From assembly GCA_012798365.1 (NCBI GenBank), contig JAAZNH010000162.1:1-12186 (forward strand): a DNA stretch of 12,186 nt. Direction: 5' to 3'. This DNA is from Methanomicrobiales archaeon. Its GTDB lineage: Archaea > Halobacteriota > Methanomicrobia > Methanomicrobiales > Methanospirillaceae. Under the pieces are notes generated by a model, which was not told the DNA's origin, did not search any database, and saw only the letters and a program-made list of their open reading frames with translations. Position 1 is the stretch's first letter. Each line of letters starts with the position of its first letter. The position numbers and the translations under genes were made by a program. This document shows positions 3,521-3,899 of the stretch, piece after piece.

Positions 3521-3570
3521 TTTACAAATAATTTGGAAAATTCTGATTTTTCTGAAATGTATAAATAATT
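3521..3570 (+). promoter_or_regulatory. AT-rich promoter region with two TATA-like boxes upstream of the abrB-hgcAB unit
   Basis: TTTACAAATAATTTGGAA (3521-3538) and GTATAAATAATTGGAA (3559-3574) are imperfect direct repeats of A(C/T)AAATAATT(T)GGAA. A T5 run at 3547-3551 could terminate the upstream ars transcript. The proximal box is centred about 40 nt upstream of ATG 3603. Confidence 0.45.
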
Positions 3571-3600
3571 GGAACTCCCACCTAGATCGTGAGGAGTTCC
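3571..3600. promoter_or_regulatory. 30-bp near-perfect inverted repeat (candidate operator, or 5'-UTR hairpin covering the SD)
   Basis: In GGAACTCCCAC-ctagatc-GTGAGGAGTTCC, the 8 outer bp pair perfectly and 3 inner bp pair after a 1-nt bulge. The repeat lies between the proximal TATA-like box and ATG 3603. Its 3' arm contains the SD-like GAGGAG (3591-3596). Confidence 0.5.
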
Positions 3601-3602
3601 CT

Positions 3603-3899
3603 ATGGCCCCCAGAAAAACCGATGATACGACAGCGAAGTCAAAGGATGCTTCGTGCGGGTGCAGCTGCAATACCGGCTGCCGGGTCGAAGCGGTCCTGAG
3701 CGTTGATGAACGCGGGCAGATGGTCCTGCCCAAGGACGTGCGCGAGAAAGCCGGGATCCGGACCGGCGACAAGCTTGCGCTGATCAGCTGGGAGAAAGAT
3801 GGCAGCATCTGCTGCCTTGCCCTGATGAAAGCCGACAATCTCAACAGCATGGTGAAGGATATTCTCGGCCCGCTCCTGAACGACCAGGGCCGTTCGTGA
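3603..3899 (+). CDS. AbrB/MazE/SpoVT-type (swapped-hairpin) DNA-binding protein with an N-terminal Cys-rich extension; hgcAB-associated
   Basis: The 98-aa product has the core VDERGQMVLPKDVREKAGIRTGDKLALI, a textbook SpoVT-AbrB motif. It is preceded by ASCGCSCNTGC. Its stop at 3897-3899 lies 1-10 nt from the hgcA start. Confidence 0.8.
   Translation: MAPRKTDDTTAKSKDASCGCSCNTGCRVEAVLSVDERGQMVLPKDVREKAGIRTGDKLALISWEKDGSICCLALMKADNLNSMVKDILGPLLNDQGRS

Follow-up and report, generated by a model that had tools for sequence, protein, structure and literature searches.

The window analysed here is a stretch of 12,186 bases, one whole contig (JAAZNH010000162.1) of a metagenome-assembled genome (MAG) of the Methanomicrobiales. 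The subject of this report is hgcC, the first gene of an hgcC-hgcA-hgcB unit in this window, together with the DNA directly upstream of it, which holds a candidate operator. hgcC (3603-3899, + strand) encodes a Cys-rich protein of 98 amino acids with an AbrB/SpoVT fold; an earlier first-pass annotation had described this open reading frame (ORF), with the cluster CGCSCNTGC at residues 18-26 and an AbrB-type domain, and all of these were found in place. The stop codon of hgcC occupies 3897-3899 and hgcA (3901-4980, ATG at 3911, + strand; NF040863, 433 bits) begins 2-12 nucleotides (nt) later, followed by hgcB (4981-5322, + strand; NF040864, 115 bits). The three genes are tightly packed, and hgcA and hgcB are likely the regulated cargo of hgcC.

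Upstream of hgcC lies an AT-rich gap of 109 nt (3494-3602), with a GC content of 40% overall and of 20% in 3515-3570. The gap contains a phased array of five units in a 9-nt register (3533-3573, + strand), namely TTGGA at 3533, TCTGA at 3542, TCTGA at 3551, TATAA at 3560 and TTGGA at 3569. The core of the array is the bipartite site TCTGATTTTTCTGA (TCTGA-TTTT-TCTGA; 3542-3555, + strand), a direct repeat with a 4-nt AT spacer, and next to it stands the archaeal TATA box TATAAATA (3560-3567, + strand). The array straddles the core promoter and is regarded as a candidate operator for HgcC. In the explanation preferred here, to which a probability of about 0.55 is given, HgcC would be an autorepressor that sits on the TCTGA array until a thiophilic metal(loid) releases it.

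The HgcC protein matched the family NF040962 ('HgcAB-associated protein HgcC') with 129.8 bits over residues 26-94 (cut-off 70), and the adjacency to hgcA and hgcB that belongs to this family is found in the window. Further matches were obtained to PF04014 (SpoVT/AbrB/MazE; 31.8 bits, cut-off 24.7) and TIGR01439 (AbrB family; 35 bits, cut-off 28.3). Only AbrB-type models were matched, and the winged helix (HTH_5/HTH_20) by which ArsR/SmtB proteins are recognized was not detected in HgcC. The structure predicted by AlphaFold2 (AF2) for the monomer has a predicted local distance difference test (pLDDT) score >90 over residues ~30-85 and a C-terminal helix at 77-96. The best Foldseek matches of this model were C68, SpoVT, AbrB and Sso7c4; the comparison with 3o27, 1yfb, 5itm and 5itj gave probabilities of 0.97-1.0 and target-normalised TM-scores of 0.58-0.76, with E values of only 0.03-0.3. 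The nearest solved chains by sequence had E values of ~1e-4.

A gene annotated prlF/abrB/mazE and located directly upstream of hgcA was reported by Zhang et al. 2023, ISME Commun (PMC10349881), from 14 of 35 contigs with hgcAB and from 8 of 31 methylators in culture, most of them archaea; it was proposed as a putative archaeal regulator of hgcAB and discussed as the antitoxin of a toxin-antitoxin system (PMC10349881). The gene described by NF040962 and by Zhang et al. 2023 is of the same family and has the same position directly upstream of hgcA as hgcC of the window. That HgcC is a type II antitoxin (PrlF/MazE), as in KEGG and JGI annotation, is extremely improbable. The Pfam MazE_antitoxin model does match, and many homologues are labelled 'antitoxin PrlF' by JGI, but PF04014 spans the whole AbrB/SpoVT/MazE superfamily, and no toxin gene adjoins hgcC either in the window, where its neighbours are an MtrA-like gene and hgcA, or in any of the 80 loci described next; the toxin-antitoxin reading was rejected for want of this partner.

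The genomic context of the family was determined from a scan of one genome per species, which yielded 440 confirmed relatives, of which the best 80 loci (labelled L001 and so on) were used for context counts. In 46 of the 80 loci the downstream genes were hgcA and hgcB (Methanomicrobiales, Methanosarcina, Nitrospirota, Desulfobacterota, Actinomycetota and others), and in 29 (36%) the downstream gene was arsM, encoding a protein of 275-290 amino acids that was identified as arsenite methyltransferase (NF008823, 358-368 bits, cut-off 263). The remaining five showed an SRPBCC protein, a DsbD-like membrane protein, another Cys-bearing S-adenosylmethionine (SAM) methyltransferase or the contig end. 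With 108-128 bits, AbrB proteins encoded before arsM matched the HgcC model just as well as those before hgcAB. In a neighbour-joining tree the hgcAB and arsM contexts were interleaved, especially among bacteria, and the partnership has therefore been exchanged repeatedly; L060 and L074 (hgcAB) nest with L070 and L080 (arsM), and L038 (hgcAB) is placed among arsM-linked Desulfobacterota. Since 29 of 80 relatives head arsM, the 'HgcAB-associated' name and the equivalog label NF040962 are too narrow.

Genes for arsenic resistance are close to the family in other ways as well. arsC or acr3 adjoin hgcCAB in ~13 loci, and in the window; arsC stands directly after hgcB in five Methanoregula-type loci (L003, L007, L008, L014 and L015; about 5540-6175), and acr3 within 1 kb after hgcB in L011, L017 and L029 (about 5730-7313), so that hgcCAB is often fused to arsenic-resistance genes. 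ArsR/SmtB-like genes were found in only five of 81 loci and were adjacent in none. The first-pass annotation had noted that no ArsR was visible in the window, and this was borne out: none of the non-annotated ORFs of the window matched any Pfam family, and a tblastn search of it with three ArsR/SmtB seeds was empty. A Cys-bearing AbrB-fold protein does head the hgcAB unit here, as had been remarked, in the place where other methylators carry ArsR.

The cysteines of HgcC are located at two places. An N-terminal thiolate cluster, C18-G-C20-S-C22-N-T-G-C26 (codons 3654-3680, + strand), stands just before strand β1; the AF2 model has low confidence in the tail at residues 5-22, which carries the Cys cluster, and the cluster probably sits in a flexible tail. 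A vicinal pair, C70-C71 (codons 3810-3815, + strand), is part of strand β4. Among the 120 closest homologues the N-terminal tail always ends with CxC-x(2-6)-C-[RK]-V-E, and 150 representatives at ≤50% identity keep a Cys before [KR]VE (often CC) as well as the CC of 'xCCLxLxK'. Every complete sequence among 81 proteins from genome loci has at least two N-terminal Cys (mean ~3), and the CC pair of β4 is kept in 80 of the 81 family proteins. The N-terminal extension of HgcA (window 3911-4010, + strand) is also Cys-rich (GSCCSCGTAPQDQSCGCSG, SCCSCG...SCGCSG) and resembles the HgcC cluster; SCCSC-like tails occur on archaeal HgcA of L001, L003, L013, L015, L020, L023 and L029 and not on Nitrospirota HgcA.

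A different use of these cysteines would be that of a redox or Fe-S sensor, in which the four or more Cys per monomer ligate a cluster or form disulfides and thereby tie the oxygen-sensitive methylation enzymes to anoxia and not to metals. At least four conserved Cys per monomer would be available for it, every host is an anaerobe, and the low-potential proteins HgcA and HgcB are of the corrinoid and ferredoxin types; a precedent for a thiol-modified AbrB-type regulator is AbrB2 of Synechocystis, which, to go by the title of a report, is reportedly glutathionylated. Such a sensor is nevertheless quite unlikely, as the N-terminal Cys vary in number and spacing and lie in the low-confidence tail, unlike fixed Fe-S motifs, and the link to arsM, arsC and acr3 points to a metal(loid) signal.

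In alignment A1, D35, G38, Q39, P43, R47 and K57 are invariant, and R37, K44, G55, C71, L74, K76 and P90 are conserved at ≥90%. The conserved basic residues map to the β1-β2 loop and to the short helix, which are the DNA-contacting elements in AbrB; D35, G38, Q39 and P43 lie in the same region.

The array was first seen when the 130 nt upstream of each family gene were compared, as the pentamer TCTGA or its complement TCAGA. Over the 100 nt that precede family genes, TC[TA]GA had a density of 2.14 per 100 nt, vs 0.14 in the other 526 kb of the loci, and at least two copies were present in 59 of 72 loci vs 2.9% of AT-rich control windows. Neighbouring half-sites were most often 9 nt apart (58 cases), with 16 cases of 18 nt and three of 27 nt. 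Exact TC[TA]GA-N4-TC[TA]GA pairs occurred 67 times in 581 kb of related loci, and 62 of these stood immediately before a family gene; when the half-site was relaxed to [TA]CTGA, two or more copies in 9n phase were found at 70 of 72 promoters, in archaea and bacteria and in hgcAB as well as arsM contexts. The site at 3542-3555 is the sole match in the window, where a second TCTGA array (e.g., before the ars genes) was sought and none was found. This phased array, located 15-60 nt further upstream than an inverted repeat which the first-pass annotation had favoured, is the conserved operator-like element and was missing from that annotation.

In both domains the array is located on the core promoter. 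In archaeal loci it abuts or flanks the TATA box; the TATA box TATAAATA itself is invariant in 11 of the 11 closest relatives and was also found in archaeal loci of the upstream-region comparison. Bacterial arrays overlap -35, -10 and +1: at 35 loci with a TTGACA-N17-TATAAT-like promoter, half-sites run through the spacer and the -10 element and on over the ~25 nt that follow the promoter, which is where a repressor classically sits. When metagenomes were scanned with TTCTGATTTTTCTGAAANNTATAAATA, 87 stretches matched, in which an ORF of the HgcC family followed 20-40 nt after the TATA box wherever downstream DNA exists. Comparative evidence of this kind gives good support to DNA binding and autoregulation by HgcC, which are judged quite probable. 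Two further repeats were noted near such promoters. In L043 (~3890-4000) the whole block of promoter, operator and ribosome-binding site, ATAAATCAGTATAATCAGAATATTCTGATTAGGAGCCACCCT, occurs a second time as a tandem copy 77 nt upstream of hgcC. In the window the TATA region forms a direct repeat, ATTTACAAATAATT (3520-3533) and ATGTATAAATAATT (3557-3570), 37 nt apart and each followed by TGGAA; the distal copy ATTTACAAATAATT is not conserved in relatives.

The Syntrophales MAG L038 carries hgcC-hgcA-hgcB and, 3.4 kb away on the same contig (within 7400-8129), another consensus sigma-70 promoter with a TCTGATTTATCTGA array. This second array precedes an arsM without a regulator gene of its own, which is expected of a trans-acting factor with a two-operon regulon. 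Between the TCTGATTTATCTGA array and arsM there is a 10-codon ORF, MVKEDQKKEE*, possibly the remnant of a regulator N-terminus.

The array also bears on the view that HgcC serves mainly as a chaperone for metal(loid)s or as an accessory subunit, taking up Hg(II) or As(III) on its thiolates and passing it to HgcAB or ArsM, with DNA binding being secondary or absent, or that it has a dual role as in ArsD (weak repressor and As(III) chaperone). Such a function would agree with the NCBI name 'HgcAB-associated protein', with the many loci in which the hgcC stop lies 1-20 nt from the next start or overlaps it, suggesting translational coupling, and with the Cys-rich tails that are also present on archaeal HgcA and on ArsM N-termini and would suit thiol-to-thiol transfer. 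It is, however, rather unlikely. Conservation within the family is highest at the positions equivalent to the DNA-contact residues of AbrB, the gene is accompanied by a highly specific repeat array in two domains of life, and a trans-acting DNA binder would account for the L038 array before an arsM that lacks the protein gene. The folds and chemistries of HgcAB and ArsM are, moreover, unrelated, so that one dedicated subunit for both is unlikely.

The inverted repeat favoured by the first-pass annotation is present (3571-3600, + strand; 8+3 bp) and consists of GGAACTCC-CAC, a 7-nt loop and GTG-(A)-GGAGTTCC. GGAACTCC (3571-3578) is perfectly complementary to GGAGTTCC (3593-3600), and CAC (3579-3581) pairs with GTG (3589-3591), with A3592 bulged. 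The right arm contains the Shine-Dalgarno sequence GAGGAG (3591-3596), 7-12 nt before the ATG, as had been indicated. The centre of an archaeal TATA box usually lies at about -26/-27, which places the predicted transcription start near 3590, inside the right arm; the repeat thus covers the predicted start, also as annotated, and its left arm would not be part of the mRNA. Folded as RNA, the repeat has an energy of -16.6 kcal/mol (z = -3.13), which is reached by one of 200 shuffled sequences; when the 109-nt intergenic region is Markov-shuffled, 2.9% of the shuffles contain a perfect 8-bp repeat whose loop is 3-20 nt long. The repeat is modestly, not overwhelmingly, non-random.

Conservation of the repeat upstream of orthologous loci, which the idea of an operator implies, was not found. 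The repeat is absent in L001, in L107 and in L085, the closest protein relative (86% identity), and its sequence is not kept upstream of 72 genome loci and ~80 metagenome loci. Most leaders of the ~80 close relatives that share an identical promoter are without a stable fold, with energies near 0. When the 11 closest leaders were aligned, the helix was paired in 60.8% of cells vs 59.5% in shuffled alignments (158 of 500 shuffles reach the value), and its covariation score was 0.169 vs 0.172 shuffled. An inverted half-site in phase with the array was looked for by eye inside the right arm, without a match. In a minority of the nearest sub-clade (L082, L153, L139, L147/148 and L114) a hairpin of different sequence occupies the same place, with the GAGG Shine-Dalgarno paired to an upstream C-rich tract.

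It is accordingly very unlikely that the repeat is the operator, or a hairpin that hides the Shine-Dalgarno sequence in transcripts from an upstream start. The repeat is real and stable, it covers the predicted start and the Shine-Dalgarno sequence, some close relatives form the different-sequence hairpin just mentioned, and read-through transcripts from the ars genes upstream, which run in the same direction, could be a target for it. On the other side are the lack of covariation and its absence from L085, L107, L001 and most of the ~80 leaders, a left arm that would be untranscribed if the start lies ~30 nt after the TATA box begins, and a complementarity that follows in part from a C-rich tract facing a GAGG Shine-Dalgarno. 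As a conserved operator or RNA hairpin the repeat was rejected, being not kept in relatives and showing pair counts equal to those of shuffled controls; it is not the conserved control element, but it may act on read-through transcripts from co-directional upstream genes or be a lineage-specific site. Of the switch that had been proposed from a Cys-rich regulator and this repeat, the protein half holds, a regulatory role being plausible, and the repeat half does not.

The preferred explanation, autorepression by HgcC from the TCTGA array, draws together what was computed here: the fold, the conservation of cysteines and basic residues, the array on core promoters in two domains, the pairing of the family with either hgcAB or arsM and the lack of a nearby ArsR. 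HgcC would autoregulate the hgcC-hgcA-hgcB operon and, elsewhere, hgcC-arsM. A dimer or tetramer of HgcC would bind the TCTGA and degenerate TTGGA pentamers, 9 bp apart, at 3533-3573; the bound pentamers would flank or abut the TATA box and the B recognition element (BRE), and assembly of the TATA-binding protein (TBP) and transcription factor B (TFB) would be blocked. In bacterial relatives the same half-sites would cover the spacer, the -10 element and +1 of a consensus sigma-70 promoter. Binding of a metal(loid) to the thiolates of the N-terminal CxCxC...C26 and of C70-C71 would then release HgcC from the DNA. As(III) sites in ArsR, ArsD and ArsM are typically built from vicinal Cys pairs. 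As(III) would be the favoured ligand because of the partnership with arsM, the neighbouring ars genes, the ArsR precedent for hgcAB and the vicinal Cys pairs; Hg(II) is possible. A regulatory, thiol-based sensing role of HgcC is plausible because the cysteines and the basic residues of DNA-contact type are conserved, arsenic genes are nearby and the same family stands before arsM; that the substance sensed is a metal(loid) is a narrower claim, given slightly less than an even chance.

Several points weigh against this explanation. Binding of HgcC to the array, repression and the metal(loid) signal are inferred from sequences, and the transcription start is a prediction from TATA geometry only. 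The structure was predicted as a monomer, and the meeting of C26, C70 and C71 in space is an assumption. The spacing of the N-terminal Cys varies (CxCxC, CxC, CC), which would agree with a soft-metal site and also with weak constraint. The genes of subunits or chaperones, too, are typically coupled tightly to their neighbours or overlap them, as is the case for hgcC and hgcA or arsM; a site upstream of an archaeal TATA box can activate rather than repress, and a phasing of 9 bp is less than one helical turn, so that the binding geometry is hard to place.

HgcC shares the swapped-hairpin fold with AbrB, Abh and SpoVT of Bacillus and with Sso7c4 and C68 of Sulfolobus, although its likeness in sequence to AbrB-type regulators reaches only E ~1e-4. 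The sites bound by AbrB of B. subtilis are bipartite, with TGGNA pentamers in direct, inverted or everted arrangement around an AT-rich spacer of 4-5 bp (PMC3738160). This layout of bipartite pentamers with a 4-5 bp AT spacer is that of the candidate HgcC sites, whereas the pentamer is TCTGA in the latter and TGGNA in AbrB. HgcC differs from AbrB and SpoVT in its Cys-rich N-terminal tail, in the CC pair of β4 and in a single C-terminal helix that replaces the C-terminal domains; it also appears dedicated to one operon, in contrast to the global action of AbrB-type regulators.

MraZ is an AbrB-fold regulator of the dcw cluster which is encoded first in its own operon and binds short direct repeats, spaced by about one turn, over the promoter. 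It resembles HgcC in fold, in being the first gene of its own operon and in the repeat series over the promoter, and is unlike HgcC in having a tandem double domain, TGGGN repeats at 10 bp and no cysteines or metal link.

Control of hgcAB by an arsenic-responsive ArsR was described in Pseudodesulfovibrio (10.1101/2022.10.17.512643). ArsR/SmtB proteins, including ArsR2 of Pseudodesulfovibrio mercurii ND132, occupy the same slot as HgcC, as the first gene of hgcAB or ars/arsM units with a self-regulated promoter. In both, As(III) is expected to be ligated by vicinal or triad Cys, and both show the same connection of hgcAB with arsenic. HgcC is distinguished by an unrelated fold without a winged helix and by another type of operator, and its response to a ligand is a matter of inference. 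By analogy, HgcC would be a functional counterpart of ArsR on a different fold.

Upstream of the gap, an ars cluster without arsR (125-2805, + strand) is co-directional with hgcCAB; its promoter falls outside the window. The cluster consists of genes for a DGC-domain protein (125-571), DUF166 (568-1254), the arsenite efflux pump ACR3 (1297-2385) and a thioredoxin-type ArsC (2398-2805), all on the + strand. Homologues of DGC and DUF166 adjoin hgcC again in L002, L011, L084, L085, L147/148 and L157, and the DGC homologue was found after arsM in L067 and L069. Directly upstream of hgcC lies the MtrA-like gene (2807-3493, + strand; NF002126, 184.7 bits), whose product is a homologue of tetrahydromethanopterin S-methyltransferase subunit A of the corrinoid-binding type; such a gene also precedes hgcC in L002 (86% identity) and L011 (78%). 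A paralogue of a corrinoid methyl carrier beside HgcA could bear on the unknown methyl donor of HgcA.

Downstream, a 10-bp perfect palindrome, GAAGAATTGC-TGA-GCAATTCTTC (5310-5332), extends across the hgcB stop codon and may be a terminator or processing hairpin. The next gene encodes a multi-pass membrane protein of 482 amino acids (5603-7051, + strand) that matches nothing in Pfam or NCBIfam and has homologues in none of the related loci; it is therefore placed outside the conserved unit. The following ~1.4 kb (7052-8467) contain no ORF matching any Pfam family and no Rfam match; strong negative GC skew was observed at 7500-8100, and two short perfect inverted repeats are located at 7158-7180 and 7884-7908. 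The window ends with ABC transporter genes on the - strand (8468-11578 and 11686-12060), which comprise a PBP_like_2 solute-binding protein with a long Ala/Thr/Pro-rich tail, ORFs that are ATPase-like and permease-like by appearance (not scanned against families) and a second solute-binding gene of which only the start is present before it runs off the contig end. A scan of the window against Rfam found no RNA family, and a sigma-70 and terminator scan of 3300-4000 gave nothing relevant, as expected in an archaeon.

The hgcC gene and the idea that it regulates hgcAB are already known. Apparently new are the conservation of the cysteines, the partnership with arsM, the operator array and the functional reading as ArsR-like. 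NF040962 and PMC10349881 make no mention of cysteines, an operator or arsM, to which are added here the equal presence of the family in bacteria, its position at the head of arsM and the array. In a literature search that covered papers outside subscription journals, no connection of arsM with an AbrB/SpoVT-type regulator and no account of the cysteines or an operator of HgcC came up. No AbrB-type metal sensor is known to us. A tentative proposal, with the odds somewhat against it, is that HgcC is the founding member of AbrB-fold metal(loid)-sensing transcription factors and that one TCTGA-type operator puts hgcAB and arsM under As(III)/Hg(II) control in Archaea and Bacteria.

Control of hgcAB expression matters for predicting methylmercury production; the sole tested regulator of hgcAB is ArsR in one Desulfovibrionaceae lineage, and the archaeal field cites a 'toxin-antitoxin system'. 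The present analysis offers a concrete model, with an operator TCTGA-N4-TCTGA over the core promoter, candidate sensor residues (C26, C70/C71 and the N-terminal CxC) and a predicted class of inducer. The NCBI equivalog name HgcC is shown to be too specific for the family, and one regulator family links the methylation of Hg and As in both domains, in support of an origin of hgcAB within arsenic or metalloid handling. If sensing is confirmed, an AbrB-fold protein would join the known families of metal(loid) sensors; if the proposal is true, HgcAB would natively be part of a metal(loid)-detoxification regulon.

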